DNA of 64,000 bases. Source: Candidatus Sericytochromatia bacterium (lineage in GTDB: Bacteria > Cyanobacteriota > Sericytochromatia > S15B-MN24 > JAQBPE01). Each line of letters begins with the position of its first letter. Within the stretch, counting starts at the first letter, position 1. The stretch spans positions 16,429 to 80,428 of the forward strand of contig JAYKJB010000120.1 of NCBI GenBank assembly GCA_035285325.1, read 5' to 3'. Both the position numbers and the translations under genes were made by a program. Shown piece after piece: positions 2,454-51,113 of the stretch. The notes beneath the pieces are model-generated. The model saw nothing but the letters and a program-made list of their open reading frames with translations, was not told where the DNA came from and made no database searches.

Positions 2454-2468
2454 GACCAGTCCTCAGTT

Positions 2469-21033: not shown

Positions 21034-22599
21034 TCAGCGCGTTTCGGGAGCGAGGATGGCAGTCTGATGGGCCTCAAGTTTGTCGAGGCGAACGGAACCA
21101 CCGACCACCGTGACCGTCCGCCGCGAGAGCAGGTCACGCAGCCGCGTGCCCTCAGGGTAGATCTGGCCCACGCTGAAGGCCAGATCACGCGTTTCGTCGC
21201 CGCTGTTCATCGCCACGACCACCTGTTGCCCCTGATCGGCCCGCGCGAAGACGAACTGACGGTAGTGATTGTGACGCATCAAGGTGCGAACTTCCCCCCC
21301 ACGCAGGGCCGGGTTGGACTTGCGCAACGCCACCAGCCGCTTCACGAAGCGCAGCATGTCGTTGCCCTCGTTGGCCTCCTCCCAGGGAAAACAGCGCCGG
21401 TTATCCGGGTCCTTGCCGCCCAGCATGCCGATTTCATCCCCGTAATAGATCACGGGAGCGCCGGGCTGAGTGAACATGTAGAGCAAGGCTTCCTTGGTTC
21501 GAACGAGATCGCCGCCGGCCTCGGTGCGCACCCGCGCCACGTCGTGGCTGCCGAGGATGTTGAAGCTGGCCTCCGTCACCTCCTGGCCATAATGCCGGCG
21601 CAGGGAACTCTGACGCGCATCAAGGTCGTCCACGCTGGATTTGCGGTAAGCGAAGAAATCGAGAATGGCGGAACGCCCCACATAGTTCATGACCGCATCG
21701 AACTGGTCCCCTTGCAACCACTGAGAGCCGTCCTCCCAGATTTCACCCACAATGTAGGCTTCTGGATTGATGGCGCGCACGCGACGCCGCCACTCCCGCC
21801 AGAAATCCGCGTTGTCGATCTCATTGGGCACGTCGAGGCGCCAGCCATCGATGCCCTGGCGGGTCCAGTACTCGGTGACGTCGAACAGGTACTCCTGAAC
21901 CTTCCGGTTGCGGGCCGCCGTCAATTGAGGCAAGGTCCCAAACCCCCACCAGGCGTTGTAATTCGGCTTTGGCGAAGTGACCACCGGGAAGCCCCAGATG
22001 CTGTAATAGCTCCAGTAGGGGCTCTGGGGACCGTTTTGCTTGCAGTCCAGGAAGAACGGATGGTCATCGCCGGTATGGTTGAAGACCCCATCCAGCAGAA
22101 CCCGGATTCCCGCCGCGTGCAAGGCGTCCAGCGTGGCCTTGAAATCCGCATTGGTCCCGAAGGCCGGGTCAATCTGCATGTAGTCGGCGGTGTTGTACTT
22201 GTGGTTGGAACTGGCCTTGAACAGCGGATTGAAGTAAACCGCATTGATCCCCAGCGACTTCAAGTAGGGAATTTTGGCCTTCACGCCGGCCAGGTCGCCA
22301 CCAAAAAAGTTTTCGTATTCAGGCTTTCCTCCCCAGGGTTGCGCGCCGGCAGGGTCATTGGCCCGGCTTCCGTTGGCAAAGCGCTCGGGGAAGATCTGGT
22401 AGAAAACAGCGTCCTTGACCCACTTCGGCGTGAAACCCTGGCGCTTGATGGCGGGTCCCCGCCGTTGCGCCTGCTGAACGAGACCGGAGCGCTTGGTTTG
22501 TGATTGCGCGGCCCCTAGCACAGCGCCACAGCCCGTCAAAGCGAGAGACGCGACCAGGCAAGCAGACCCCCAGGTTTTGGCACCCATTGCGTTGCGCAC
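21034..22599 (-). CDS. GH13 alpha-amylase / cyclomaltodextrinase-neopullulanase-like lipoprotein
   Basis: YQIFPERF, catalytic GWRLDV, VGEIW and GSHD motifs; lipobox LTGC. Confidence 0.93.
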   Translation of the reverse strand: MRNAMGAKTWGSACLVASLALTGCGAVLGAAQSQTKRSGLVQQAQRRGPAIKRQGFTPKWVKDAVFYQIFPERFANGSRANDPAGAQPWGGKPEYENFFGGDLAGVKAKIPYLKSLGINAVYFNPLFKASSNHKYNTADYMQIDPAFGTNADFKATLDALHAAGIRVLLDGVFNHTGDDHPFFLDCKQNGPQSPYWSYYSIWGFPVVTSPKPNYNAWWGFGTLPQLTAARNRKVQEYLFDVTEYWTRQGIDGWRLDVPNEIDNADFWREWRRRVRAINPEAYIVGEIWEDGSQWLQGDQFDAVMNYVGRSAILDFFAYRKSSVDDLDARQSSLRRHYGQEVTEASFNILGSHDVARVRTEAGGDLVRTKEALLYMFTQPGAPVIYYGDEIGMLGGKDPDNRRCFPWEEANEGNDMLRFVKRLVALRKSNPALRGGEVRTLMRHNHYRQFVFARADQGQQVVVAMNSGDETRDLAFSVGQIYPEGTRLRDLLSRRTVTVVGGSVRLDKLEAHQTAILAPETR

Positions 22600-25646: not shown

Positions 25647-25718
25647 AGCGGGAAAAGGGATTCGAACCCTCGACCCCCACCTTGGCAAGGTGGTGTTCTA
25701 CCACTGAACTATTCCCGC
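25647..25718 (-). tRNA. tRNA-Gly (GCC), 3' CCA not encoded
   Basis: GCGGGAA acceptor stem, D-loop AGTGGTA, anticodon loop TTGCCAA, T-loop TTCGAAT; followed by CCT rather than CCA. Confidence 0.98.
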
Positions 25719-25861: not shown

Positions 25862-27565
25862 TCAAGTCAAGCGCAAGCGCTGCTGAAGCGCCGTGAGACG
25901 AGCCTGAAGCTCGGACGTCTCCAGGTCCCGGTACAAGGGAGGCAACAAGCGACGACTGGAACATTCGAAGATGGCCAGCAACTCCATGAAGGCGATCATG
26001 TCCCGATCGCGGTGGGGAATGTAATCCCGACACGCCGCGTCCGCATCGGAGCGCGTGATCTCTTCCCGCGCCTCCAGGGCCGCGAAGCGCGCGGCGATCA
26101 GCAAGACGGCCTCAAGTTCCGCCCCGGAATACCCTTCCAGCAGGCTCAACGGCTCCAGCGCATCGGTGGTCGCGCAGCGCAGTCGATTCTTTCGCACGAG
26201 CGCCTCCACCAGCGCCCGGCGTGCCTCCCGGTGATGGGGAAAGAACAGCGGAATTTTCAGGTCAAACCGCCCCGGCCGCTTGAGATCGACATCCAGCTTG
26301 TCGGGGCGGTTGGTCATCACCAACCAGAGCACCCGCCCACGCTGACGCGTGTCGGCCATGAAAGCCTTCAAGGTGGCAAACACCCGGCTACTGGTTCCAG
26401 AGTCGCCATCCTCCCCTCCGAAAGCCCGCTCCACCTCATCCACCACCACCATGACCGAGCCCATGGTCTGGATCAGGCCCAGAATTTTTTGCAGATTGGC
26501 CTCGGTGGACCCGACCCATTTTTCCCGAAAGTTCTTCAAGACCAGGCACGTGAGTCCCGACTCCCGTGCGAAGGCAGCGGCCAAGAAGCTCTTGCCCGTT
26601 CCCATGGGCCCTACCAGCATCACGCCCATCGGCACCTGCTGCGTCTGCCCCTCCCGGATCGCCCGGGCCGCCGCCAGCAAGACCCCCTTGGGCTCCTCCA
26701 GCCCGCCGACGGCATCCAGTCCGTGCGGGGCCTCCATCAACTCCACCAGGCCCTGGCACTCGGCCTCGATCACCTCTTTGCGACGCTGCGACACCAGGGC
26801 AAAATCCACCGGCAACGCGGATTGCCTGGCCATGCGGAACATGTTGTCGATCTGAATGAAGCGCAACCCACTGGTGATGCGCGCCAGCGTCGCATCGTCC
26901 AGCACGCTTTCAAAAGCCCCCTCGCTCCGCCGGCGTGCGATCAGGGCGCAGCGATCCGCTTCAGGGGGACGTGGAATGACCAGTTGGGCCAGTTGCGGAC
27001 TGCCTGCGACGCGGCGATTCAGGTCCGCGACGTGCTCGCTGACCAGCAAGATCAGGTTGTCACCGCCCAAAATCCGGGCGTCCTTGGCCCAACGTTGCAA
27101 GGTCAGCACACAGACCCGGTCGTCGGCACTCAGCATGGCCAGGTCGGCCGCCGGGGCGATCGCCTCGGCAAAGTCGATCACGAGCGCCAAGCGCGAGCCC
27201 GGCGCCAGCAAAAAACGCTCGAGCAATGGCAGAACCTGGGCGGCCGCCGTGGGCAATTCCGCGGGTTCGAAGACCTCACCATCGGCCAGCGCCAGCGTCG
27301 CCCGCTGTTGCAAGAAGCGTCGTTTCATCTCGGGCTGCGCAAACGTGAGCCCTTCTGACGGGTCGTAGAAGACGACCAGTTCCTTGGCCGCCAGCAACCC
27401 CTCGGCCAGGAACGTTCGCAGCGGCACGAAGCCGCTCCGCCAGGGCACCAGGTCATGAACGTTTCCGTGAAGCAAGAACTGCGCGGATTCGCCAGCCAGA
27501 TAGCGGCGCCGGAGGTCCTGGGCCCAGCCCGGTAGCGCCACGATGTCCTGGGAGGTGTCGGTCAC
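25862..27565 (-). CDS. AAA+ ATPase (SpoVK/Ycf46/Vps4-like) with a degenerate N-terminal AAA-like domain
   Basis: Walker A GPMGTGKS, Walker B VVVVDE, SRH TNRPDKLD...RPGRFD; N-terminal LLHGNVHD without a Walker A. Confidence 0.92.
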   Translation of the reverse strand: MTDTSQDIVALPGWAQDLRRRYLAGESAQFLLHGNVHDLVPWRSGFVPLRTFLAEGLLAAKELVVFYDPSEGLTFAQPEMKRRFLQQRATLALADGEVFEPAELPTAAAQVLPLLERFLLAPGSRLALVIDFAEAIAPAADLAMLSADDRVCVLTLQRWAKDARILGGDNLILLVSEHVADLNRRVAGSPQLAQLVIPRPPEADRCALIARRRSEGAFESVLDDATLARITSGLRFIQIDNMFRMARQSALPVDFALVSQRRKEVIEAECQGLVELMEAPHGLDAVGGLEEPKGVLLAAARAIREGQTQQVPMGVMLVGPMGTGKSFLAAAFARESGLTCLVLKNFREKWVGSTEANLQKILGLIQTMGSVMVVVDEVERAFGGEDGDSGTSSRVFATLKAFMADTRQRGRVLWLVMTNRPDKLDVDLKRPGRFDLKIPLFFPHHREARRALVEALVRKNRLRCATTDALEPLSLLEGYSGAELEAVLLIAARFAALEAREEITRSDADAACRDYIPHRDRDMIAFMELLAIFECSSRRLLPPLYRDLETSELQARLTALQQRLRLT

Positions 27566-27574
27566 GGGAGGCCC

Positions 27575-28279
27575 TTACAAGGTCTTTTCCGCTCCAGCTT
27601 GCTGCTGAGCGGCCATCTGACGCTTGAGGGCTTCCAACTCACTGCGTGCCACGGAGGTGGTCGTCGCGGCCTTGATCTGGCGCAATTTGTGATCGACCCC
27701 GGCCCCCTGGACCTCGCTGGCCACGTCCGCCTGAGCCTCCAGTTTGTGGATGCTCTCCCGGACCGCAGCCAGGGCACGAGTTTCTGCGGCCGTGCTGAGA
27801 CCGGATAGCTGTTCTTGAATCTTGAGACGCGCCCGGGCGTGCTCTCGCTTGGCGAGCATGCGATCGCGCTCGGCCTTGAGCTTCTCGATCTCGCCCTGAA
27901 AGCTGACCAGGCCCGCTTTGGCCTCGTCGGCCTGCTGCGTGACCTCCTTGAGTTCCCGTTCGGTTTCGGCCAGTTCCGCGGTGAGCTGATTCTTCCGTTC
28001 GATCAGGAGCAAAGCGGCTTCTTCCTCCCCCTGCTGCACGGCCACGGGGATCTGGGCCGTCACCTCTTCCAGCGCCTTGCGCTGGGCCTGCAGGTCTCGG
28101 GAGAGCTTGTTGCGCAGCGTGACGATGCTCGCCACCGCGCCCAGTAACTTTTGATGCTGGGTCACCCGTTCATTGATGGCTTGCTGATAAACGATCTCCG
28201 GGTTGTCCTTTTCCAGGTCCTCGACCCAAACGGAAAAGAACCCTTTGAACACGTTCAGGAAGCGAGCGAAGAAACCCAT
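27575..28279 (-). CDS. pspA: PspA/IM30 (ESCRT-III-like) family protein
   Basis: Amphipathic MGFFARFLNVFKG N-terminus, EKDNPE, long coiled coil, G.EEAA...IERK, C-terminal ELEALK. Confidence 0.9.
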   Translation of the reverse strand: MGFFARFLNVFKGFFSVWVEDLEKDNPEIVYQQAINERVTQHQKLLGAVASIVTLRNKLSRDLQAQRKALEEVTAQIPVAVQQGEEEAALLLIERKNQLTAELAETERELKEVTQQADEAKAGLVSFQGEIEKLKAERDRMLAKREHARARLKIQEQLSGLSTAAETRALAAVRESIHKLEAQADVASEVQGAGVDHKLRQIKAATTTSVARSELEALKRQMAAQQQAGAEKTL

Positions 28280-28461
28280 GCCGTCGTTCCTTTCCGAGGT
28301 TGGTGCCGGGGCGCCCGGCGATCGTCCCCAGGCCCCGCAGGGCGCCCAGGCGATGGAGCGTGCCGCTCCAAGCTGCTCCCAACATACCCTCTGACAGTGC
28401 TTTAATGATCGGGCCACCGGGCGGCCTTGGCCCTGTCCATTTTTCCGGGGAGTTCCCGCGC

Positions 28462-29414: not shown

Positions 29415-31073
29415 CTACAACTTGAGGTCCTGCCCGGGGGCCAGCACGTGCAGCTTGAGGTCCCGCGCACTGGCCAGGGCGGGATTGGCCAGGCTGACGC
29501 GCCCCGTCTCCACCACCACCGCGGGGGTCTCGCCCCAGACGCGCAACTGTCCGCTTTCGATGCGAACCCCATTGTTGGACGACAGGCCGACCCCCAGCGC
29601 GCCACCGGCCAGCATGGCATCCACCACCAGGCGGTCCAGCGAACCGGGCGCCCACACGTCCGCCGAGGTGATCACCCCGGGAACGATACGCAAGCCCGAG
29701 GAAAGGTCTTGCAAGCCGGTGCCCCCCCGCGTAGCCGGTTCTCCCACCGTGCCGACGGCGCCGCCCGCCGCCACCACTTGCAAGCTGGTCGCCGCCTGTC
29801 GCAACAACTGGCCTGGTTCCCCCATGAGGGCGTTGGCCAGGGACCCATCGGCATCGTCCAGCAGCACGACCCCGCCGGCGATGCCCAGATATTGCCGCAA
29901 GATCGGGCTGCGCACCTGCGCGGCTGACAACACGCGCAGGGTGGTGCGTCCCTCCGCAGCCAGGCTGCGCTGCCAGGCCTGGGCTTGCGGCATCGCCAGA
30001 TGCCCGGCCAGGATCAGCAGTTCGTCAGGGAGCGGCCAGAACGGCCCTCGAAAGGAGCTACCGAGTCCGGCAAACCAGGCGGGGGGCGGCAGGGCATCAC
30101 CGCCCTGGAGCCAGAGCGAGGTGGCACCCAGGGGTTCTCGGCCCCGGCTTGGCAGCATGGGCGCCCGCTCCTGGTTCTCCCGGCGCCAGCGGAAGGTCTC
30201 GCCCGCGGAGAGCGTGTGGAGGTCCACGTCACGGATCGAGACCGGCCCGCGCGCAGGGGTGGTCACCCGGGCCTTGGCCACATCCAGCACCGTCACCCGC
30301 CCACTGCCGAGAACCCGCACCCCCTCGGCGGTGAAAACGGCGGCCGTGCCTTCATCCACGCCCACGCCCAGCATGCGCGGGGTCTGGGCTGCAGCCAGCA
30401 GCAGGCGTCCCAGGCGCCCTTCTCGCCCGAAATGCGTGTCGATGATCGCGTTGGGCAAAACGGCCAGACCATCCCGCACCTCCAGGCTGCCAGGCCCGAT
30501 CCCCCGCTGCAAGGCGGGCACGCTGGCCCCTGAGGTGATGTAACTGGGACCCCAGACCATGGCCCCCGCGCTGGTTCCGGCCAGCACCACGCCACGTTGC
30601 CAGGCCGCCAGCAGCGCCCCGTGGGCCGGTGTGCCGGTGATGGTTTGGACCAGGCGGATCTGGTTGCCGCCCGTGGCGTAGATCAGATCCGCCTGGGCGA
30701 TCGCCTCGATGACGGTGGGCTCATAGGCCTGCTCGCGGGAGAGCAAGGGCAGCACCGAGACCTGAGACACCCCGAGGCTTTGCTGAAAGAACCGCGTGTA
30801 GACCGTTCCGCTCTGGGTCGGATTGCCGGAGGCGGTGTTCACGATCAACACCTTGCTCGCCCGGCCTCGGGCCAGTTCAATCACGTCTTGCATCAGTTCG
30901 ACGTTCTCGGAACCGCCCCCCACGGCCACCAAGGTGCCGCCCTGCGCCTCGGCGTCGGCACGGAGCCCCAGCAAGGTCCCCAGCAGCACGCAGGCGAGCG
31001 CGACAGGCAACAATCGCTTGACCGGGAGGCCCCGGTTCGGTCGTGACGGGTTCAAGGCGCTTCCAACTTCCAT
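29415..31073 (-). CDS. Secreted cyanophycinase-like S51 peptidase with an inactive second S51 domain
   Basis: Signal peptide; TGGNQ, GTSAG (Ser), DTHF (His) and GVDE (Glu) triad in domain 1; the C-terminal repeat lacks all three residues. Confidence 0.85.
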   Translation of the reverse strand: MEVGSALNPSRPNRGLPVKRLLPVALACVLLGTLLGLRADAEAQGGTLVAVGGGSENVELMQDVIELARGRASKVLIVNTASGNPTQSGTVYTRFFQQSLGVSQVSVLPLLSREQAYEPTVIEAIAQADLIYATGGNQIRLVQTITGTPAHGALLAAWQRGVVLAGTSAGAMVWGPSYITSGASVPALQRGIGPGSLEVRDGLAVLPNAIIDTHFGREGRLGRLLLAAAQTPRMLGVGVDEGTAAVFTAEGVRVLGSGRVTVLDVAKARVTTPARGPVSIRDVDLHTLSAGETFRWRRENQERAPMLPSRGREPLGATSLWLQGGDALPPPAWFAGLGSSFRGPFWPLPDELLILAGHLAMPQAQAWQRSLAAEGRTTLRVLSAAQVRSPILRQYLGIAGGVVLLDDADGSLANALMGEPGQLLRQAATSLQVVAAGGAVGTVGEPATRGGTGLQDLSSGLRIVPGVITSADVWAPGSLDRLVVDAMLAGGALGVGLSSNNGVRIESGQLRVWGETPAVVVETGRVSLANPALASARDLKLHVLAPGQDLKL

Positions 31074-32722
31074 TCCCAGACGTTCCACAAGTTGCCGCGG
31101 ATCGTCGGGTTGGGACGAAATCCGCGCAGCCGCGTGCTGGTCGCATCCGTGCCCGACCAATATAACAGGGGGATCACCGGAAGATCGAGGCGCAGGTGAC
31201 GCGCCACTTCACGATAGATCGCGGCCCGCTCGCGCTGTCGCAGGGTACGTAGGCCGGCGTCGAGCAGGGCGTCCACGCGGGCGTTGCGATATCGCGCCCG
31301 ATTTTGCCCCAGCGGGGGAATCTGGTCCGAGCGCCAACGAAAACTCGTGTCGGGGTCCGGACGGGACATGGAGGCCAGCAAGGCCAGATCGAAGGTGCCG
31401 TCGACCAGGCGCCCGTGAGGCGAGCCCAGCAGCACGGAGGGCGGCCATTTCTCCAGCGTGAGTTCGATCCCGGCTGCCTGCCACTGCTTTCGCCAGATCT
31501 GCGCCGCCAGGGAGCGGGCCGGCTTGTCGGCCGTGGTCAGCAAGGTGAGGCTGAGACGGGCCGCGCCGCGCCGCCGGATCCCGTCCGGGCCCACGCGCCA
31601 ACCCGCGGCGTCGAGGAGCGCGGCAGCGGCCCGTGGGTCGTGGGGATAGGCGTTCACCGCCTGCGGGTCGAAAGCCCAGTGAGACGGGGGCAACTCGCTC
31701 CAGGCGGGCTGCATCAAGCCCCCGTAGGCCCGGGCATTCAGCTGCTGACGGTCGATCAGGTGGGCGATCGCCTGACGCACCCGTCGGTCTGCCAGGACCG
31801 GCCGTGACAGGTTGAAGACCAGATGCTCCCAGGAGCCTGAATGGCTGACGTGCACGCGTTCTGCGGCCTCCCGTTGCAAGGCGTCGAAGGCCGTCGGGGG
31901 AGCCCCCTGCAGCAGGTCCACTTCCCCCGTGCGCCACAGTTGATAGGACGTGGCCTCCTGCGGGATGAATCGCAGATCCAGGCGCGCCACCGCCGGCTTG
32001 CCGCGGAAATAATCGGGGTTGGCCTCGGCCAGGATGCGATCCCCGGTGCGCCAACCCGCGAAGCGGTAGGGGCCGGTGCCGATCGGCTCCCGATTCCAGC
32101 GCTGCCGCGCCAGGTCGCGCGACGCCGAGGCCAGCTGATGAGCGGGCAACACGAATGGAAACAGTTCGGCGTAAGGCGCGTAGGGGCGTCGGAACTCCAG
32201 CCGCACCGTATGAGCATCAAGGGGCACCACCTGCTGAATCTGCTCGAATCCGGCGCGCGAAATGGCCGGAAAGTCCGGGTTCATCAGCAGGCGCCAGGTG
32301 GCCTGGACATCGCGCGAGGTGAAGGGCTTGCCGTCGTGCCAGCGCACCCCGCGCCGCAGCCGGTAGGTCACGTGCATGCCGGCCCCGACGGGGCGAACCC
32401 CGCCATTCTCCAGCGTGGGCACTTGCTCGGCCAGATCGGGCAACCAGTGCCCCTGCGGGTCGAGCAGCAGCAAGCCACTATGAAAGGCCGCCGCGGTGGT
32501 GCCCACCACCGCCATTGGCGAGAGGTAGGGATTGAGCGTCTCCGGCTCCTGAGCGAACACCACGACGGCCGTGTCGCGAGATGGCGCCTGCGAGGCTCCC
32601 CCCCGCGCGCAACCCGGCGCAAGCATCAGCACGGCCAGTCCCAGGCCAAGCGCAGGTCTTGCTGCCGTCTTCCAGCGCGCCAGGCCCGGCAGCGCCCCGC
32701 CATGTCGCCTCAAACGCGTCAC
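31052..32722 (-). CDS. Peptide ABC transporter substrate-binding lipoprotein (family 5)
   Basis: QEPETLNP, LRRGVRWHDGKPFTS.DV, PIGTGPY, D.RVRQAIA..IDR; GTGA overlap with the upstream gene. Confidence 0.95.
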   Translation of the reverse strand: MTRLRRHGGALPGLARWKTAARPALGLGLAVLMLAPGCARGGASQAPSRDTAVVVFAQEPETLNPYLSPMAVVGTTAAAFHSGLLLLDPQGHWLPDLAEQVPTLENGGVRPVGAGMHVTYRLRRGVRWHDGKPFTSRDVQATWRLLMNPDFPAISRAGFEQIQQVVPLDAHTVRLEFRRPYAPYAELFPFVLPAHQLASASRDLARQRWNREPIGTGPYRFAGWRTGDRILAEANPDYFRGKPAVARLDLRFIPQEATSYQLWRTGEVDLLQGAPPTAFDALQREAAERVHVSHSGSWEHLVFNLSRPVLADRRVRQAIAHLIDRQQLNARAYGGLMQPAWSELPPSHWAFDPQAVNAYPHDPRAAAALLDAAGWRVGPDGIRRRGAARLSLTLLTTADKPARSLAAQIWRKQWQAAGIELTLEKWPPSVLLGSPHGRLVDGTFDLALLASMSRPDPDTSFRWRSDQIPPLGQNRARYRNARVDALLDAGLRTLRQRERAAIYREVARHLRLDLPVIPLLYWSGTDATSTRLRGFRPNPTIRGNLWNVWEWKLEAP

Positions 32723-33720
32723 GGCTGGTCTGCCTCCAACCAGGTGGGCGCGGCCCAGTCCTCCCCGGGTTCCGCCAATCCGTCAGGCTCAGCTTGGCCG
32801 GGCGCGCGGCGGAAGGCCTGTTCGAGGTCATCTCGGACGGCGACCAGACTCACCTCCAGTTGATCGAGGATGAACAGCGCCCCACCGACATCGAGGTCCA
32901 GCAAGGCCAGCAACAGATGCCCCGTCCCCACCTGAGCGAGGCCCGCGGCCCGGGCGATCGCCCAGGCGTTCTCGCAAACCTCCTCGCTCCAGCGCGAGAG
33001 TTTCAAGCGCCCGGGCATCGTCCCGCTTCCCCGACCAATCGCCTGATAGGCCACGGCCTCCACCTCCAGGGGGTCGACCCCGTGGGCCTCCAGCAGTTTG
33101 GCGGCAAGCCCGCTGCGCACGTACAGCAGGCCCGTGAACAGCTGCTCCGTGCCCACGATCGTGTGCCCATAAAAACGCGCGGCGGCATAGGCGTAACTGA
33201 GCACGGACTGGGCCGCCGGCGTCAGCAGTCGCCGGGCAAAGCGCCTGGGGCGCAGCGGCAGCTCCTCCGCGTGTTCTGCCGCTTGTTCCGCTTCGCTCTG
33301 CGCCGCCAGGGCCTGAAACGCCTCCAGCAAGGGCTCACGCTCGAGGCCCAGCTGGGCCAGCAGGCGCTGCGCCACCGTATCCGGCTCTTCCAGCAAGGCC
33401 TTGAAGAGGTCCTGGCTCTCGACCAGACGAAGTGCGGGTTGATTGAGTCGTGCCAGCACCCGCAGGGTTCCAGGCGCGAAGACCAGCTCTTCCTGACGTG
33501 CCAGGCTGTAGCCACGCCCGCTCAGATGCTCCACGGCCAGCCGGAGCTTTTTTGCGTGCAACCCCTGGCGCTGCAACAGACGATTGGCCAGGCCGCGCTG
33601 CTCATGCAGCAAGCCCAGCAACAGATGGTCCGTGTCGACCTGGTGGAAGGCCAGGCGCAAGGCCTCTTCACGGGCCGCGTTCAGGGCCTGGATCGCGCCA
33701 GCAGAGAATTTTTCTAACAG
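32719..33720 (-). CDS. Stand-alone tandem Clp N-terminal (Clp_N repeat) domain protein, no ATPase
   Basis: VDTDHLLLGLL, VGTEQLFTGLL and VGTGHLLLALL repeats. Frame stays open to CTG 33720, 6 nt after GGAGG, giving (M)LEKFS like the ClpC MFERFT start. Confidence 0.85.
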   Translation of the reverse strand: MLEKFSAGAIQALNAAREEALRLAFHQVDTDHLLLGLLHEQRGLANRLLQRQGLHAKKLRLAVEHLSGRGYSLARQEELVFAPGTLRVLARLNQPALRLVESQDLFKALLEEPDTVAQRLLAQLGLEREPLLEAFQALAAQSEAEQAAEHAEELPLRPRRFARRLLTPAAQSVLSYAYAAARFYGHTIVGTEQLFTGLLYVRSGLAAKLLEAHGVDPLEVEAVAYQAIGRGSGTMPGRLKLSRWSEEVCENAWAIARAAGLAQVGTGHLLLALLDLDVGGALFILDQLEVSLVAVRDDLEQAFRRAPGQAEPDGLAEPGEDWAAPTWLEADQP

Positions 33721-33751
33721 GAGAAACCTCCCTCGTCACGCCCGGGTGCCG

Positions 33752-35209
33752 TCAATCGGCGACAGCCTGGCGCACGGGCAAGGCCAGATAGACGGTGGTG
33801 CCCTGTCCTTCGGTCGATTCTACGTGAATCTCGCCCCGGTGCGCATCCACGGCCTGTTTCACGATCGTGAGGCCCAATCCGCTGCCGCCCTGAAGGCGAG
33901 AGCGGTTGCGGGTGACCCGGAAGAAGCGGTCAAAAATATGCGGCAGATCTTTGGCGGGGATCCCGATGCCGGTGTCGGCGATGGCCAGATGGACGCGTTC
34001 CGATTCTCCCCAGGCCCGCAGCGTCACCGTTCCCCCGGAGGGGGTGAACTTGACCGCATTGGCCACCAGATTGACCAGCACCTGGCGGAGCCGTGAGGCG
34101 TCCCCCTCCAGGTCCAGCGACGTCTCGGGCAGGTCGGTGCGCAGCGCCACCTCGCGCTGCTTGGCCTGCGGAGCCACCGTCTCGACGGCCTCGGCGATCA
34201 CCGTGGCGATCGCCAGCGGGGCGATCTGCAGGGTGTCACGGCCCGACTCCAGGGCCGCCAGGTCGAGCAGATCGTTCACCAAGGTGTGCATCCGCTCCAT
34301 CTCCCGCAAGGCATCGGCCAGGAACTCGTCCGCCACGGCAGGATCGTCCTTGGCTCCCTCGACGAGATTCTCCAGCAGCAGCTTGACCGACGTCACCGGG
34401 GTGCGCAGTTCGTGCGAGGCGTTGGCGATGAAATCCTGCCGCAACCGATCTTGTTCCACCTCCCGCGTGATGTCCTGATAGCTGACCAGAAAGCCGGCGC
34501 ACCGGCCCCGGTCATCCTGAAGCGGTGCCCCGTAGCGACGCAGGAACTGGCGGGGACGCTCGAGCTGGATGATGTCGGTGCGGGGCCGGTCGGGATGATG
34601 ACGCATCTCGTCTTCGATCAGGGCCAGCTGATCCGGCACGAAGCAGCGCGTGTGAAAGGCGGTGCGATAGCCGCTCAGTCCGGTGCCCTCACTGGTTTCA
34701 GCCGTGGCCATCGAGCGCAGCGCGAGGTTCGCCAGCAGCGGCTCGAAGTCGCGGTCCAGCAGCAGCACCCCTTCACTCAAGCCGTCCAGCACCAGGCCGA
34801 GCGCAGCGGGCAGGGGACGCAACTCCCCGTGTTCGACCGTGCCCCCACGGGGCTCGGAAAGTGCCGGCCCCGAGGCCTGCCCAGCGTCCGCCGGGCCGCG
34901 TGCCGCCAGACGCGCCAAGAGCGCCTCGTGGACCCGCCGCCAGGCCGCCCCATCCGGCCCAGGCAAGGGCCCCAGAGGCACGGGTACCCCCTGCGAGAGG
35001 CGTTGGAGGGCCTGCAGGAGCTGGTCCAGGGGATGCAGCAGCAGACCGACGACCAGGGCCGACAGCAACCAGGCGACGCCGGCCACCACCATCAGCGAGA
35101 GCGGCTCCGGCCAATCCCAGCGAATCGCCAGAAGCCAGAAGACCGCGCCCGCCAGGCCCACCAGCAGGAAGTGGAAAAACATCAGGCGAGCGTACAGGGA
35201 GCGAACCAT
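33752..35209 (-). CDS. PhoR/SphS-like sensor histidine kinase (TM, HAMP-like, PAS-like, HisKA, HATPase)
   Basis: FIANASHELRTPVT, NLVANAVKF, DTGIGI, GSGLGL. Confidence 0.93.
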   Translation of the reverse strand: MVRSLYARLMFFHFLLVGLAGAVFWLLAIRWDWPEPLSLMVVAGVAWLLSALVVGLLLHPLDQLLQALQRLSQGVPVPLGPLPGPDGAAWRRVHEALLARLAARGPADAGQASGPALSEPRGGTVEHGELRPLPAALGLVLDGLSEGVLLLDRDFEPLLANLALRSMATAETSEGTGLSGYRTAFHTRCFVPDQLALIEDEMRHHPDRPRTDIIQLERPRQFLRRYGAPLQDDRGRCAGFLVSYQDITREVEQDRLRQDFIANASHELRTPVTSVKLLLENLVEGAKDDPAVADEFLADALREMERMHTLVNDLLDLAALESGRDTLQIAPLAIATVIAEAVETVAPQAKQREVALRTDLPETSLDLEGDASRLRQVLVNLVANAVKFTPSGGTVTLRAWGESERVHLAIADTGIGIPAKDLPHIFDRFFRVTRNRSRLQGGSGLGLTIVKQAVDAHRGEIHVESTEGQGTTVYLALPVRQAVAD

Positions 35210-35239
35210 GGAAATGTGGTCTCGGGCGCGCGCGGGGGT

Positions 35240-35959
35240 TCAGGTCACCTCGGCCGGGCGCGTGCGACGCTCGAAGCGATAGCCCACGCCACGAACCGTC
35301 TGGATGCGCATGGGGTGGTTGGGATCCTTTTCAATTTTTTCGCGCAGCCAGTGGATGTGAACATCGACGGTGCGGCCTTCTCCGGTGAAGTCGTAGCCCC
35401 ACACCTGTTCGATCAGATACTCGCGGCTCAGCACCTTGTTCGCGTTCAGGGCCAGCAGTTTCAACAACTCGTATTCTTTCAGCGTGAGGTTGAGCACCCG
35501 GCCTCCCAGCGTCACCTCGTGCCGGGTCAGGTCGATGATCAGGTCTCCAATTTCGATCTTGTCGGGCTGGGCCTGCTTCTGTTCCCCGTATCGCGTCACC
35601 AGGCGCAGCAGCGCCTTCACGCGGGCCAACAATTCGCGCAAGCTGAACGGCTTGGTCACATACTCGTCCGCCCCAATCTCGAGGCCGACCACCTTGTCGA
35701 TTTCCTCGCCCTTGGCCGTGAGCATGATGACGGGAATCGGCATCTCCTGGCGCAACTGCCGGCAGACCTCGTAGCCATCCAGATGGGGCAGCATCACGTC
35801 CAACACCATCAGGTTCGGCTTCTCCCGCCGGGCCACCTCGAGCGCCTGCTGGCCGTCCTGGGCCGTGACCACCACGTAGCCCTCTTTTTCGAGACTGTAC
35901 TGGATGCTTTTGACGATGGAGGGTTCGTCATCCACGACCAGGATCTTGGCAGCCGGCAT
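35240..35959 (-). CDS. OmpR-family response regulator (PhoB/SphR-like)
   Basis: Receiver domain plus winged helix; RTVDVHIHWLREKIEKDP resembles the SphR-type HIRWLREK. Start trimmed to MPAAKI. Confidence 0.95.
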   Translation of the reverse strand: MPAAKILVVDDEPSIVKSIQYSLEKEGYVVVTAQDGQQALEVARREKPNLMVLDVMLPHLDGYEVCRQLRQEMPIPVIMLTAKGEEIDKVVGLEIGADEYVTKPFSLRELLARVKALLRLVTRYGEQKQAQPDKIEIGDLIIDLTRHEVTLGGRVLNLTLKEYELLKLLALNANKVLSREYLIEQVWGYDFTGEGRTVDVHIHWLREKIEKDPNHPMRIQTVRGVGYRFERRTRPAEVT

Positions 35960-36108
35960 ACGCCTCGCGCTCCTTGAGTTCTGCCGCCGGGGCGTGGTCA
36001 CGCTGCGACGGGCTTCGTTTACGGACGAGAAATTGACCCTTGTCAGTTCCTTGATCCAATTTTCAAAAACTTAATCGCGTTATACCCATCCGCCGGAGAG
36101 GTAGCAGG

Positions 36109-36138
36109 CCTTCACGAAGATTTACCCAAAATTACCCT
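36109..36138 (+). promoter_or_regulatory. Imperfect direct repeats between the divergent regulator and Omp85-like gene
   Basis: CTTCACGA, ATTTACCC and ATTACCCT units spaced 10-11 bp. Confidence 0.35.
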
Positions 36139-36231: not shown

Positions 36232-39051
36232 ATGCCCCCCACGGTCTTGCCCCTCGCCAGTCTGCTCACCACTCTGGCATTGCTGTGGACGGCTCCAGCC
36301 GCCCACGGGGCCGAGCCACAGAAAGAGGGCTGGCAGGTGTGGCACAGCCCTCACTTCGTGGTGCACTTCCCGCCCGGCCTGACACGCACCGCGCGCCGGG
36401 TGATCACGGCAGCGGAACGGGTTTACCCTCGTCTTCAGCAAGATTTCGAGGTGCCGCCTGGTCCCCCGATTCCGATCATTCTGACCCCGGAAGCCCTGTT
36501 CAATGGCGAGGCGGAACCGCTCAAGGAACGCATCACCCTCGATCCGGGCCTGACCGTGTCATCCGTCGTCGGCACCGAGCGATTCGTGGCGCACGAACTG
36601 GCCCACGTCCTGACCTTTCGCGCCCTCTCGACGGGGGCCCCGCTGAGCAGACTGAATGCCCTGACCGGGCTACCAACCTGGTTCCTGGAGGGTCTGGCCC
36701 AGTTCGAAGCGGAGGCCTGGACCCCAGCCCTGGACCGCATGCTGCGCCTCGCGAGCCTGGAGGGTCGCCTGCTGAGCACCTCGGAGCGACAACATTTCCG
36801 CGTCCTCGGGATGCATGCGGGTGCGGCCGGCTACAACGAGGGGTTTTCGTTGTGTCGCCACCTGTTCGTCAACCCCGAAGGGAGCCAGAGGCGACAGCTG
36901 ATGCGCCTCCTCAAGGAGGGGCGAGGTTCCTTCGAACAGGCCTTGCAACGCTGTTTCGGAAAGTCGTGGCCGGCGCTCGAAAGCCAGTGGCGACAAACCC
37001 TCACGACCCATTATCAGCAGCAGGTGGTGGGCAGGGACGGCACCGTCCCAGGCGCGGTGACCCTGGTGGAAAGCCAGGAGGGAGCCTTCAACGTCCAAGC
37101 CGTGCCCTCGCCGGATGGTCGCCGCCTGGCTTACATGACCAGCGCGCCGCAGCGACGCTGCCTGTATCTGCGCGGGCAGGTGCTGGGGCTGCTTTCCTTG
37201 ATGGTGGCCGACCGTGACGGAAAACATCCCCTGCCGCTCCCGGAGGCCGAGGGACTGGTCAGCCAGTTTGCCTGGGCCCCCGATGGCGATCGCCTGGCCA
37301 CCGTCCAGCTGTCACGCGATGGCGGAAGCAGCCCCAGCTTCGACATCTTCCTGTACGACCTGCCGCACGGGGCGCGAACGCGCCTGACGCGGGGCGAACG
37401 GGTCGAGGCCATCGGTTGGCATCCGACGCACGACGAGTTGCTCTACGTCGCCAACACAGACGGCCGCAACACGCTGCATGCCATCCATCGACGCACCCTG
37501 AAACGACGGCTGTTGCAGGCCGCGCCGGGGGACACCCAGTGGCGGGAGATCCAGGTGTCACCGGATGGCAAACGCCTGGCCATGGTCTCGTTCCAGCCGG
37601 GCGAGAGCGGTCGGCTCGCCTTGCTGCAGCTGAGCCGCGGCCAGGTGCAGTTCGTCAGGGGGAGGCGCGATGACGCGCGCACGCCCCGTTGGCTGCCGGA
37701 TGGACGCCAGCTGATTTACAGTTCGGAGCGAAGTGGCTTCTCCGATCTGTACCTGCGCGATGTCGCGAGCGGGAAGGACCGAGCACTCACTCACAGCTAT
37801 GCCGGCGTGGAGGCACCGGCCATCTCGGCCGACGCCAAGATGGTCTATTTCACGACCTTTGCAGCGCGCGGCAGCCACCTCGCCCGCGTGCCGCTGGCAA
37901 CGCTCCGGGACAGGCTGCCCGGCACGCGCGCTGCCGCCTCGGGGCGCCCCCGGACAAGCCCGGCTGGGCAGCTCGAGGACGAGGCGGAGGAGGCCTCCTG
38001 GGGCTCGCCCCTGGCGGACATCCGCCCTTATCGCGCCACCCTCACGCACGACCTGATGGTGCCCCGAGTCAGCAACGACGAGCGAGGCTATCAGGTCGGG
38101 CTGACCAACTATTACAGCGACATTCTGCGCCGCCACGAAGTGGGCGTCGACGTCGGCTATGGACTGCAGAGTGGGCGATTTGGCTACAGCGCGAGCTACC
38201 AGAATCGAATGGGAGCGACCCCCTGGGAGCTCCGGCTCCAGGACGTGCCTCAGCTCGCCATCGCCCCCGAACTGGGCGGCTCGGGACGTCCCGTTCTCGA
38301 GCATCTCTACCTGCAACGAGACACCGGCGTGTCGCTTCGATTTCAGCAGCGCCTGGGGGGCGGCCGAAGCCTGCAATGGGGAGGGCAGCTGGGCACGCTG
38401 GGCAGCCTGACCCGCCCGACGGCCGGCAGCCCCCTGCCGGAGGCCCCTCTGCACACCCTGAGTGCCACCTGGCAGGAGGAGAATGTGCCAGGCAATCCGG
38501 TGGAGGGGCTGCTGCCCCGAAGGGGCCACCGCCTGGCCCTGAACGGCAGCCTGAGCGACCCCAGCTTCGGCAGCGGCTACCGCTTCCAGCGCTGGCTGTT
38601 TCAGGGCGAACGCTATTTCGGACTCCCGGGTGGGCCGCGCCAGAATCTGGTCTGGCAATGGAATCTGGGACTTCAGAGCGGAGAGGCCCCCCAGCCGTTC
38701 CTGCTCGGTGGCGCGAACACCGCCGGCCCGCTGGCGGCCTTGCGAGGCCACAGCGTCGGCATCCAGAGCGGCCAGCGTCTGGCGGTCTCCTCGCTGGCCT
38801 GGAATGCGCAGCTCGCCAATCATCTCGATGTCAGCCTGGGGGCTTTCTACCTGGACCGGCTCTCGCTCTCGGTATTTTCAGAGCTCGGCAGTGCCTGGCG
38901 CGAGGAGGCACGCCCGCTGGGACTGGGCAGTTCAGGCTTGGAGCTGCGCGGGGAAGGCGTCGTCATGGGCCGCCAGCCGTTCTCCCTGCGGCTCGGGGGG
39001 GCCTACCGCTGGGGACAGGCCGATTGGCCGGCCTTTTACCTCACCTTCTGA
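36232..39051 (+). CDS. Exported Zn-metallopeptidase (MA-like) + TolB/PD40 propeller + Omp85/BamA-like C-terminal barrel
   Basis: Signal peptide; HELAH...WFLEGLAQ; repeated SPDG/WAPDG/WLPDG; LRGH motif and C-terminal FYLTF. Confidence 0.8.
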   Translation: MPPTVLPLASLLTTLALLWTAPAAHGAEPQKEGWQVWHSPHFVVHFPPGLTRTARRVITAAERVYPRLQQDFEVPPGPPIPIILTPEALFNGEAEPLKERITLDPGLTVSSVVGTERFVAHELAHVLTFRALSTGAPLSRLNALTGLPTWFLEGLAQFEAEAWTPALDRMLRLASLEGRLLSTSERQHFRVLGMHAGAAGYNEGFSLCRHLFVNPEGSQRRQLMRLLKEGRGSFEQALQRCFGKSWPALESQWRQTLTTHYQQQVVGRDGTVPGAVTLVESQEGAFNVQAVPSPDGRRLAYMTSAPQRRCLYLRGQVLGLLSLMVADRDGKHPLPLPEAEGLVSQFAWAPDGDRLATVQLSRDGGSSPSFDIFLYDLPHGARTRLTRGERVEAIGWHPTHDELLYVANTDGRNTLHAIHRRTLKRRLLQAAPGDTQWREIQVSPDGKRLAMVSFQPGESGRLALLQLSRGQVQFVRGRRDDARTPRWLPDGRQLIYSSERSGFSDLYLRDVASGKDRALTHSYAGVEAPAISADAKMVYFTTFAARGSHLARVPLATLRDRLPGTRAAASGRPRTSPAGQLEDEAEEASWGSPLADIRPYRATLTHDLMVPRVSNDERGYQVGLTNYYSDILRRHEVGVDVGYGLQSGRFGYSASYQNRMGATPWELRLQDVPQLAIAPELGGSGRPVLEHLYLQRDTGVSLRFQQRLGGGRSLQWGGQLGTLGSLTRPTAGSPLPEAPLHTLSATWQEENVPGNPVEGLLPRRGHRLALNGSLSDPSFGSGYRFQRWLFQGERYFGLPGGPRQNLVWQWNLGLQSGEAPQPFLLGGANTAGPLAALRGHSVGIQSGQRLAVSSLAWNAQLANHLDVSLGAFYLDRLSLSVFSELGSAWREEARPLGLGSSGLELRGEGVVMGRQPFSLRLGGAYRWGQADWPAFYLTF

Positions 39052-39128: not shown

Positions 39129-39902
39129 ATGCCGTCCATGGCTTTTTCCGACCTGATGCGCCTGAAGGAACAACTTGGACGCCCCTTGATCATGGGGCAC
39201 CGCGGCGCCATGGGGCACGCCCCGGAAAACACCATGGCCAGCTTTCAGCTTGCGCAACGCATGGGGGTGGAAGCGATTGAACTGGATGTTCATCTCTCCC
39301 GGGATGGCGTGCTGGTGGTGCATCATGACGAAACCTTGGAGCGCACCACAAACGGCCAGGGCGAGCTGTCGGCGCTGACGCTGGCGCAGTTGCAGGAACT
39401 GGACGCCGGCCGTCACTTCTCGAGCGAGTTCGCGGGGGAGCGCATTCCCACCCTGGAAGAGGTGCTGGTCTGGGCCCGCGGCCACGCCCTGCCGGTGGTG
39501 ATCGAATTCAAGCGCAACCTCAACGTGAAGGCGATCGTGCAAGCAGCGATCGCCCTGGTGGAGCGTCTGGAGGCCGGTGACAACGTCGCCTTCATCTCGT
39601 TCGACCACTTCGTCCCGGCCGGCCTGAAGCAGGCACGTCCAGACTGGTGTACCGGTGTGCTCTATGCCGGTCGGCCGATTGACTCCGTGGAACTGGCCCA
39701 CAAGGCGGGGGCCGATGGTCTGCTGCCCAATTTTTATTTCGTGGAAAAGGACATGGTTGAAGCCGCACACGCCGCCGGCAAGTGGGTCGGCTGCTGGGCG
39801 CCCAACACGCCCCGCGAAATGGCCTACGCGCTCTCGCAGGACGTCGACATGATCGGCACCAACTTCCCCGATCGCCTGCACGATTTGCTGAAGCAGGGCT
39901 GA
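39129..39902 (+). CDS. glpQ: Glycerophosphodiester phosphodiesterase
   Basis: GHRGAMGHAPENT, IELDVHLSRDG..VVHHDETLERTT, IPTLEEVL; GAGGAG RBS before ATG 39129. Confidence 0.95.
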   Translation: MPSMAFSDLMRLKEQLGRPLIMGHRGAMGHAPENTMASFQLAQRMGVEAIELDVHLSRDGVLVVHHDETLERTTNGQGELSALTLAQLQELDAGRHFSSEFAGERIPTLEEVLVWARGHALPVVIEFKRNLNVKAIVQAAIALVERLEAGDNVAFISFDHFVPAGLKQARPDWCTGVLYAGRPIDSVELAHKAGADGLLPNFYFVEKDMVEAAHAAGKWVGCWAPNTPREMAYALSQDVDMIGTNFPDRLHDLLKQG

Positions 39903-47927: not shown

Positions 47928-48827
47928 TCACTCGACCTGAACCAGCCGGGTGTAGATCTTGTGCCCGAGCAAGCTCTCCTGGCCGCCGCGGCGCCAAAGT
48001 TTAGGCACCACCAGCACATGCGTGTAGGTGCCGGGCGCGGAGGGCGCCGCCCGGTTCACATTCAGCCCACGCTTGGGGACCAGCGTGAAACGAAGGGAAC
48101 GATACACGTCTTCCGCGCCAGTCTTCGAGATCACGGTGGCCAGCGGCACCAGCGAATAGGCGTATTCCGTGCGCGCCCCGGACATGCTGTCATCCCCGAA
48201 ATACATCCGCAGCTTGTAGGGTTGCTTGGCACTCAGCAGAACCGGCAGACTGGTGAAGCCCATGACCCCGAAGGGCTGGCCGATGTCGATGAAACTGTCG
48301 TTCCAGGCCACCTGGAGCGTATCGGCCCGCCAGCCGTCGGCGGCCCGTCGATACATCGCAGTGACCTCGCCCACCTCGGAATAGGTGGCCGGGAGACCTG
48401 AACCATCGTAATTCGCGGTGGTGCCGGTGAACTCGGCCACGGTGGTGACATTGGCCTCTCCATCGCCCATCTCGGACACCGTGACGGCGCGATAGCGCAT
48501 GCGGAGGTCTCCGAAGGAACGCTTCAATTCGCGATTGATTTCCACCAGACGGGCCCGCTCGACCTGGATTCCGTTGTAGGTGACCTGCGGGGACAGGTCG
48601 TGCAAGTAACCATCGAAATCACCGCGATTGAAAGCCTTGAGGCTGAGCTCCAGGTGACTACGCAAGGCCTGTTCCGCCCCCGACGGGCCGACCTCCGCGG
48701 GCGTGGCCACCGACTGCGCTTCCGCGGAAAATCCCCAGGCCCTCGCCTCGAGGCGTCCACCCAGAGCCAGCGCGAGGCTGAGGCCCGTGGCCAGCACGGC
48801 CGAACGGAAAAGGATTGCAGGTCTCAT
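47928..48827 (-). CDS. Exported protein with an NTF2/SnoaL-like domain
   Basis: Signal peptide; AFNRGDFDGYLHDLSPQVTY; ATGA overlap with the upstream GH57 gene. Confidence 0.7.
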   Translation of the reverse strand: MRPAILFRSAVLATGLSLALALGGRLEARAWGFSAEAQSVATPAEVGPSGAEQALRSHLELSLKAFNRGDFDGYLHDLSPQVTYNGIQVERARLVEINRELKRSFGDLRMRYRAVTVSEMGDGEANVTTVAEFTGTTANYDGSGLPATYSEVGEVTAMYRRAADGWRADTLQVAWNDSFIDIGQPFGVMGFTSLPVLLSAKQPYKLRMYFGDDSMSGARTEYAYSLVPLATVISKTGAEDVYRSLRFTLVPKRGLNVNRAAPSAPGTYTHVLVVPKLWRRGGQESLLGHKIYTRLVQVE

Positions 48828-51043: not shown

Positions 51044-51113
51044 GGCACACTTGAAAGCAAGGGCTCATCCGGAGAGCCGTGGCGTTCAGTGTAGCGGATG
51101 ACCAGACCGAACG

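Follow-up and report, generated by a model that had tools for sequence, protein, structure and literature searches.

A gene block of Sericytochromatia couples an OmpR-type two-component system to a predicted exported tandem cyanophycinase-like enzyme, a binding lipoprotein and a Clp-N protein

Introduction

Why would a bacterium of the Sericytochromatia encode a two-component system in one tightly packed gene block with an exported cyanophycinase-like enzyme, a solute-binding lipoprotein and a protein made up of Clp-N domains? This class is the non-photosynthetic sister of the oxygenic cyanobacteria, and these uncultured cyanobacterial relatives have a largely unknown lifestyle. The block lies at positions 29415-35959 on the minus strand of a stretch of 64,000 nucleotides from Candidatus Sericytochromatia bacterium (GenBank assembly GCA_035285325.1, contig JAYKJB010000120.1, positions 16,429 to 80,428), which was analysed as a whole and is referred to as the window; positions are those of the whole 64-kb window unless a relative's locus is named. 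An initial annotation, made from the sequence alone, had described the block as an operon in which a PhoB/PhoR-like system controls the scavenging of cyanophycin or other isopeptides from neighbouring cells under starvation. The operon probably serves to harvest aspartate-rich peptides or polymers. Our preferred reading, a module that couples a regulator to peptide or polymer scavenging, is held tentatively, and most of its uncertainty stems from the substrate and the stimulus.

A conserved five-gene block

The five open reading frames (ORFs) have a third-position GC of 0.81-0.84, which marks them as real genes. From upstream to downstream they encode an OmpR-family response regulator (RR; 35240-35959, 239 amino acids (aa), Pfam Response_reg and Trans_reg_C), a sensor histidine kinase (HK; 33752-35209), a tandem Clp-N-only protein (32719-33720, 333 aa), a family-5 solute-binding lipoprotein (SBP; 31052-32722, 556 aa) and an enzyme of the Peptidase_S51 family (S51 enzyme; 29415-31073). 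The layout of five genes on one strand given in the initial annotation was borne out by reading the sequence: a 30-nt gap separates the RR and HK genes and a 31-nt gap the HK and Clp-N genes, the Clp-N and SBP genes overlap by 4 nt (GTGA), and the SBP and S51 genes overlap by 22 nt from ATG 31073 or by 4 nt (TTGA) from TTG 31055, where the gene would begin according to the 546-aa length of the same protein in the database (P0001). The 31-nt gap is conditional on a Clp-N start at CTG 33720, which is preceded 6 nt upstream by the Shine-Dalgarno sequence GAGGGAGG and which in six relatives corresponds to an ATG, GTG or TTG; with TTG 33660, the first canonical start codon, the first Clp_N helix would be lost. 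The RR ORF extends to GTG 36001, and ATG 35959 is favoured as its start because the orthologues have 236-239 aa. No terminator-like sites were found on the minus strand within the operon.

The block recurs in nine other Sericytochromatia loci. Among the metagenome-assembled genomes with this operon are GCA_035285125.1, GCA_035284745.1 and GCA_028287685.1. The order RR-HK-Clp-N-SBP-S51 is kept in loci L001, L010, L090, L003 and L004/L005, and L095, whose contig begins within the kinase gene, carries HK-Clp-N-SBP-S51. In L092 (306-806), the kinase is shrunk to a 166-aa protein that is homologous only in its N-terminal part with two transmembrane (TM) helices, by either a real deletion or an assembly artefact; the other four genes of the block are intact. 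In L093, the Clp-N and SBP genes are separated by an additional gene (1944-3167) for a concentrative nucleoside transporter (CNT/NupC family); the presence of a secondary transporter here fits an uptake locus. Identity to the window proteins in the cluster-bearing loci is 92-97% for the RR, 48-66% for the HK, 43-66% for the Clp-N protein, 49-69% for the SBP and 45-61% for the S51 enzyme. Because these loci span GC contents of 56-74% and S51 identities of 45-61% and differ in part in their flanks, we consider the block to be kept by selection. The stop/start overlaps at the Clp-N/SBP and SBP/S51 junctions are retained in most loci; in L004/5, the Clp-N and SBP genes lie ~45-90 nt apart. The linked gene unit of the initial annotation is thus found in relatives as well, with its order kept in nine other loci and its genes tightly packed.

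Named homologues of the S51 enzyme, the Clp-N protein and the RR are almost all labelled Candidatus Sericytochromatia, and a scan of genome contigs with a full-length S51 alignment was dominated by Bacteroidota cyanophycinases and returned only two Sericytochromatia loci. The block may well be a lineage-specific operon of one Sericytochromatia subclade in which regulator and kinase are co-transcribed with three accessory genes, a view that we hold with some reserve. We find it scarcely credible that RR-HK(-Clp-N) and SBP-S51 are independent adjacent units with synteny but no shared function, as might be argued from the gaps in L004/5, from the occurrence of the RR without the other genes in L094 and from the tandem S51 genes that stand alone in L006, L008, L009 and L011. 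Such independence sits badly with the overlaps kept at both downstream junctions in most loci, with an order that persists over a GC range of 56-74% while the flanks change, and with a Clp-N family that is almost confined to the block.

A predicted active/dead tandem S51 enzyme

The initial annotation of the last gene as a secreted cyanophycinase-like enzyme is well founded. The protein exceeds the curated cyanophycinase cutoff (TIGR02069, 184.7 bits vs 126.6) and scores only 26.6 bits with the PepE model. A signal peptide (~aa 1-41, 30951-31073) with cleavage at ...LGLRADA/EAQ was read from the sequence; N-terminal hydrophobic segments are present in all S51 orthologues, and the AlphaFold2 (AF2) pLDDT is below 50 for residues 1-43. 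The N-terminal catalytic domain (~aa 44-300, 30174-30944) contains Ser168 (GTSAGAM), His214 (DTHF) and Glu241 (DE), which are invariant in 15 sequences (alignment A1) and align to the catalytic triad of CphB. It shares the S51 fold, the Ser-His-Glu triad and the GxSxG nucleophile motif with the intracellular CphB of Synechocystis (3EN0, 7UQW) and with CphE of Pseudomonas anguilliseptica / P. alcaligenes. CphB requires Gln101, Asp172, Gln173, Arg178, Arg180 and Arg183 (PMC3235067, citing Law et al. 2009), and in the extracellular CphE a Thr replaces Gln173 (PMC3235067). Residues Q138, D212, R220 and R223 of the window enzyme correspond to CphB Gln101, Asp172, Arg180 and Arg183 and are invariant in the alignment, and Thr213 of the DTHF motif is the CphE-type Thr; like CphE, the enzyme also has a Sec signal peptide (PMC3235067). 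In total, the triad is intact, and of the five pocket residues that CphE conserves, four are present in the window enzyme.

The C-terminal half (~aa 301-552, 29415-30173) had no Pfam match. It is nevertheless related to the N-terminal half by BLASTP (E 1e-8) and by hhalign of the two domain profiles (probability 98.7%, E 3e-16, 223 columns), and in this degenerate duplicate the catalytic Ser, His and Glu are all replaced. By these comparisons, the S51 enzyme is predicted to join a cyanophycinase-like domain that is active to a duplicate that is catalytically dead. Its AF2 model is a confident two-domain structure (pLDDT 87.4, pTM 0.85) for which Foldseek found CphB and a homologue as the best PDB matches (TM-score normalised to target 0.85), and the N-terminal half thus has, in the model, the cyanophycinase fold. 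By sequence, the PDB matches of this half are 7uqv and 3en0, with 29-33% identity to the solved enzymes. Because CphB is reportedly a homodimer and the S51 enzyme joins an active to a dead half, the fused protein is most likely a built-in pseudo-heterodimer that has a single active site, unlike CphB and CphE. The pseudo-domain was matched by only 13 of 1.84 billion representative proteins, most of the matches falling at ~300-570 in proteins of 546-582 aa, and a metagenome scan with the pseudo-domain alignment gave a single locus. Our literature search found no description of a tandem active/dead cyanophycinase and no mention of one in Sericytochromatia.

Other S51 architectures were seen among distant homologues (P0090-P0120), many of which combine Peptidase_S51 and Asparaginase_2 (IaaA-type isoaspartyl peptidase) in a single fused protein (~645 aa) and others of which carry a type IX secretion (T9SS) sorting domain (PF18962; ~670 aa). 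MccG represents another S51 clade with a Ser-His-Asp triad in this functionally diverse family (PMC9239234). An MccG-type peptidyl-nucleotide resistance function, considered on account of the CNT gene in L093, was rejected since the S51 enzyme has Glu and matches the cyanophycinase model.

The solute-binding lipoprotein and the search for partner genes

The SBP (SBP_bac_5, 269 bits; lipobox LAPGC) is an exported orphan of family 5 without transporter genes in the window, as the initial annotation had described it. The lipobox is present in 6/8 orthologues, and a plain signal peptide was found in L004/5. Its best PDB match is AppA (4e-38), and the nearest solved structures bind very different ligands. 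It scored far below the cutoffs of specific models (nikA, 132.7 vs 393; DppA, 72.6 vs 1005) and likewise far below those of Opp4A, GsiB, SapA and OppA. It is reasonable to guess at a peptide-like ligand; none of the tests made here points to beta-Asp-Arg.

Gene absences in the window were read from a Pfam scan of 37 window ORFs across the 64 kb. None of these ORFs encodes an ABC permease or ABC ATPase, in line with the initial annotation, and none of the scanned genes matched Asparaginase_2, IadA-type amidohydrolases or M14 peptidases (IadA/IaaA/CphZ). The initial annotation had also pointed to iaaA/cphZ and cphA; within the window, neither an isoaspartyl dipeptidase gene (IadA, IaaA, CphZ) nor cphA was detected. 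At 78 cyanophycinase loci from other phyla, no SBP_bac_5 gene was found within 10 kb and no Clp-N neighbour was found, and no tandem-enzyme locus showed a cyanophycin-pathway neighbour.

Cyanophycin-utilisation loci that combine a cyanophycinase with IadA/IaaA/CphZ and a transporter, as well as scavenging of beta-Asp-Arg by non-producers, have been published (PMC10206079, PMC9974463). Like these loci, the operon pairs an exported cyanophycinase-family enzyme with an uptake component, in a bacterium that is not known to produce the polymer; unlike them, it is without an isoaspartyl dipeptidase or membrane transporter and has a two-component system and a Clp-N protein instead. In the literature searched, cyanophycinases are not connected in any paper with two-component systems, Clp-N proteins or family-5 SBPs. 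The module was initially called undescribed, which holds for its gene composition and for the tandem enzyme, but not for cyanophycin scavenging as such.

The two-component system

The HK has two TM helices joined by a loop of ~8 aa (IRWDWPEP) that is conserved in the orthologues, followed by a Pro/Gly-rich linker, a cytoplasmic PAS_4 domain, HisKA (SHELRTP) and HATPase_c; no HAMP domain was detected. This PhoR/SenX3 layout implies membrane-internal or cytoplasmic sensing, usually via partner proteins. NCBIfam scores of the HK were all below cutoff and ranked PnpS (290.6, cutoff 400) before WalK (264.5, cutoff 725) and PhoR (245, cutoff 334.2), with MtrB at 161 (cutoff 450), and its PDB matches, of the VicK/WalK type, span the catalytic core only. 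The RR also scored below cutoff, in the order YycF (269.9, cutoff 340), MtrA (256.3, cutoff 300), RpaB (246.2) and PhoB (234.3, cutoff 296.2); its best PDB match is RegX3, then MtrA. Neither protein reached a Pho, Wal or Mtr equivalog threshold, and no pst or phoU gene was found in the 64-kb window. The pair resembles PhoR/PhoB and SenX3/RegX3 in a kinase with two TM helices, minimal loop, PAS, DHp and CA domains, in RegX3 as the best solved relative of the RR and in the rank of PnpS and PhoR among the top kinase profiles. It differs in its scores below the equivalog cutoffs, in the missing pst/phoU linkage and in the fact that WalR, MtrA and RpaB beat PhoB for the RR. With equivalog models below cutoff, a split ranking and no pst/phoU in the window, the PhoB/PhoR-like identity initially proposed is not established.

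RR orthologues are found class-wide with identities of 73-97%, which fall sharply to at most 64% outside the class, where the few named matches are Chloroflexota; some JGI records label the orthologues PhoP. In L094 (10001-10711), a 76% orthologue is an orphan between a VanW gene and alcohol dehydrogenase genes on a 5.18-Mb Sericytochromatia contig from a distant genome. The RR looks like a master regulator, not like part of a sensor system dedicated to the module, and its class-wide conservation and orphan occurrence speak against the dedicated, starvation-coupled system of the initial annotation.

The Clp-N protein

The third protein consists of two complete Clp_N double-repeat domains with no other domain detected and no signal peptide, and is predicted to be cytoplasmic. 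Its family is narrow (46 proteins at ≥43% identity) and occurs almost only in the operon block. A canonical T-E dyad is present only in repeat 3 (E in 45/45, T in 43/45); the other repeats read DTDH, ESQD and GTGH. The dyad may mark a candidate phosphoarginine site, partly by presumed equivalence to ClpC E32/E106. The assignment also rests on the T99A result (PMC13345244). Mycobacterial ClpC2 is a phosphoarginine-responsive repressor and antibiotic decoy (PMC13345244, PMC10030653). Like ClpC2 and plant ClpT, the window protein stands free, as a homologue of the N-terminal domain of ClpC to which no AAA+ module is attached, and like ClpC2, in which one of two phosphoarginine sites is kept, it retains one canonical T-E site (PMC13345244, PMC10030653); unlike both, it has two complete tandem Clp_N domains and is encoded between kinase and exported-protein genes.

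A 44% homologue in L091 (5429-9530) overlaps the start of a soluble GAF/PAS histidine kinase by 4 nt and is divergent from an M14 peptidase gene, with no RR, SBP or S51 gene there. The coupling of Clp-N proteins to kinases in two different arrangements suggests a role as kinase accessory. Distant multi-Clp-N proteins (P0167-P0171) have no informative fused domain.

In wal and mtr operons, accessory genes follow the kinase gene. The block resembles the WalRK (walRKHIJ) and MtrAB-LpqB operons in that the genes for accessory proteins, some of them extracytoplasmic, come after those for a highly conserved OmpR-type regulator and its kinase; it differs from them in having a kinase with no extracellular domain. 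By one reading, the exported pair and the Clp-N protein might serve an essential WalRK/MtrAB-like system as accessory signalling parts, with a role like that of WalH/WalI or LpqB; a ligand made outside the cytoplasm by the S51 enzyme and perceived by the SBP, perhaps envelope-derived, would then tune the kinase. This would agree with the 92-97% conservation of the RR, typical of master or essential regulators, with YycF and MtrA as its top profiles, with accessory genes that trail the kinase gene, with the two kinase arrangements of the Clp-N family and with an SBP that has no transporter partner. We nevertheless judge it very unlikely: the ~8-aa loop of the kinase gives the SBP no surface, none of the accessory proteins is related to WalHI or LpqB, scores with the WalK and MtrB models fall far short of the cutoffs, and in L093 a transporter gene lies inside the block.

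A related and even more remote reading is that all three accessory proteins jointly feed input to a master regulator present class-wide. From cyanophycin-like material of prey or neighbouring cells, the S51 fusion would release a beta-Asp-Arg-like isopeptide as a signal for capture by the lipoprotein SBP, and the Clp-N protein would be a sensor of an arginine derivative that tunes the kinase or Clp-dependent turnover. If true, this would be a new type of accessory-protein-dependent two-component system, through which a nitrogen polymer outside the cell is linked with global transcription in non-photosynthetic cyanobacterial relatives.

Proposed function, substrate and stimulus

In the scavenging reading that we prefer, the kinase would sense a cue from the membrane or the cytoplasm, which may reach it through the Clp-N protein, and phosphorylate the RR, which would autoregulate the operon via a conserved upstream direct repeat. 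Outside the cytoplasm, the S51 enzyme would act as a built-in pseudo-heterodimer in place of the CphB homodimer and clip small units off the ends of Asp-rich or beta-Asp-branched peptides or polymers (cyanophycin or related), with a P1 pocket altered from Arg to Glu. The lipoprotein SBP would capture the product and pass it to an ABC permease encoded elsewhere.

Several observations weigh against this reading. CphB Arg178, equivalent to CphE Arg228, is reported to be critical for activity (PMC3235067), and the window enzyme has Glu218 at this position; across the tandem enzymes the residue is E, Q or K in 11/11, whereas it is Arg in 78/78 other homologues retrieved, which come from groups such as Bacteroidota and Acidobacteriota. 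In the PDB, the sequence that matches the S51 enzyme best belongs to an entry titled "Pseudobacteroides cellulosolvens pseudo-CphB" (131 bits vs 100 for CphB), a title which warns that passing a family model does not prove cyanophycin activity. Because of these two points, cyanophycin is uncertain as the substrate, and the initial proposal of cyanophycin is weakened accordingly. Distant tandem S51 genes (~35% identity) in Sericytochromatia lie in unrelated contexts, and no two-component system, Clp-N or SBP genes were found beside those in L006, L008, L009 and L011. The ligand of the SBP cannot be assigned from profile or structure matches, and cphA and genes for an isoaspartyl dipeptidase, a permease and an ATPase were all missing from the 64-kb window. 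Finally, the main job of the RR is probably global, given that its conservation far exceeds that of its partners and that it occurs as an orphan in L094.

At the L006 locus, an Amidohydro_1 gene beside the tandem enzyme was considered as IadA and rejected, as it belongs to an 8-oxoguanine deaminase equivalog, and the major facilitator superfamily (MFS) gene there is of the efflux type. With these neighbours, L006 gives no support for cyanophycin use.

The altered pocket raises the alternative that the S51 enzyme is a diverged non-cyanophycinase acting on another substrate, such as alpha-/beta-aspartyl peptides or another branched polyamide, whose product is bound by the SBP. The position of Arg178 is charge-reversed or neutral in all tandem enzymes, pseudo-CphB is the best PDB sequence match, the family is functionally diverse (PMC9239234), and none of the tandem-enzyme loci has a cyanophycin-pathway neighbour. 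On the other hand, the enzyme scores above the curated cyanophycinase cutoff, the equivalents of Gln101, Asp172, Arg180 and Arg183 and the CphE-type Thr are invariant, and Arg217, adjacent to Glu218 in the close clade, might compensate for the lost Arg. We regard this alternative as doubtful, though worth keeping in view.

Closest to the initial annotation is the proposal that a Pho-type system (PhoB/PhoR, SphR/SphS) induces a cyanophycin-scavenging pair under phosphate starvation, so that beta-Asp-Arg is released from the polymer of neighbours and imported by way of the SBP. Its arguments are the PhoR/SenX3 architecture of the HK with the Pho-type PnpS as best NCBIfam match, the match of the RR to RegX3, which is a phosphate-responsive regulator, the PhoP label of some orthologues in JGI records, a cytoplasmic GDPD gene in the divergent unit (see below) and an S51 score above the cyanophycinase cutoff. 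We hold it to be unlikely in view of the Pho equivalog thresholds that no protein reached, the ranking of YycF, MtrA and RpaB before PhoB for the RR, the lack of pst/phoU in the window, the class-wide and elsewhere orphan RR, the loss of the Arg178 equivalent, and an enzyme without dipeptidase or permease partner.

Upstream region and neighbouring genes

An alignment of the regions upstream of the RR gene from seven loci identified a conserved element, GGGTAAATCTTCGTGAA, at 36127-36111 on the minus strand, with two GTrAA half-sites 10 nt apart, and a -10-like sequence, GGGTATAAC, at 36087-36079 on the same strand. The consensus of the element is GT(T)AAAyCTTCGTGAA, and together with a -10-like box, GGGTATAA, it is conserved in the closer loci. 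A consensus promoter scan did not report the element of 36079-36127. We infer that this region is a putative promoter with an RR-binding site, which would fit autoregulation by an OmpR-type protein. A perfect repeat, TTACCC-N4-TTACCC (36122-36137), was considered as an HLR1-type or Pho-box-type site and rejected; although unique in the window, it is at chance level there and is not conserved in relatives, where the neighbouring GTrAA-N5-GTGAA element alone is conserved.

The intergenic region that holds the conserved element is shared with a divergent gene (36232-39051, plus strand), whose membership in the system is uncertain. It encodes a secreted protein with Peptidase_MA_2 (HELAH, aa 121), PD40/Tricorn-like propellers and a C-terminal Omp85-type barrel ending in ...FYLTF; the Omp85 score is 14 bits in the window copy and 33.5 in the L090 orthologue (cutoff 24). 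Such a fusion of protease and outer-membrane barrel is unusual. The gene adjoins the operon in five loci, among them L001, L003, L010 and L090, and not in L004/5. That the protease-barrel protein supplies peptides upstream of the S51 step is speculative. Just downstream of it lies a gene for a cytoplasmic glycerophosphodiester phosphodiesterase (GDPD; 39129-39902, plus strand), which is kept in L001, L010 and L090. GDPD-type genes belong to Pho regulons in some bacteria, and the gene is a weak hint at Pho control.

On its other side, the operon is flanked by a minus-strand gene for PspA/IM30 (Vipp1-like; 27575-28417) followed by an AAA ATPase gene (25862-27565, minus strand). This pair is kept beside the operon in L001, L003 and L010, and the contig of L092 ends just past PspA. 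The GC content steps from ~0.61 (1-26000) to 0.66-0.69 (26001-64000) near 26 kb, by a tRNA gene (25647-25718); synteny with L001 runs across this step, which makes a chimeric assembly unlikely. Two adjoining GH57 genes on the minus strand (48824-53162; amylase/4-alpha-glucanotransferase-like and branching enzyme) and an alpha-amylase gene (21034-22599) suggest active glucan metabolism.

Implications

What is most original about the operon is the tandem enzyme, whose pocket is altered, and the coupling of its Clp-N protein to a kinase. The active/dead S51 fusion with its re-charged pocket could show how a dimeric enzyme recognises a polymer, or reveal a new substrate, and the repeated coupling of Clp-N-only proteins to histidine kinases suggests an unstudied accessory role for the Clp-N domain. 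By tying the most conserved OmpR-type regulator of the Sericytochromatia to an exported enzyme and an SBP, the operon offers a lead on how these bacteria may feed or sense their neighbours.

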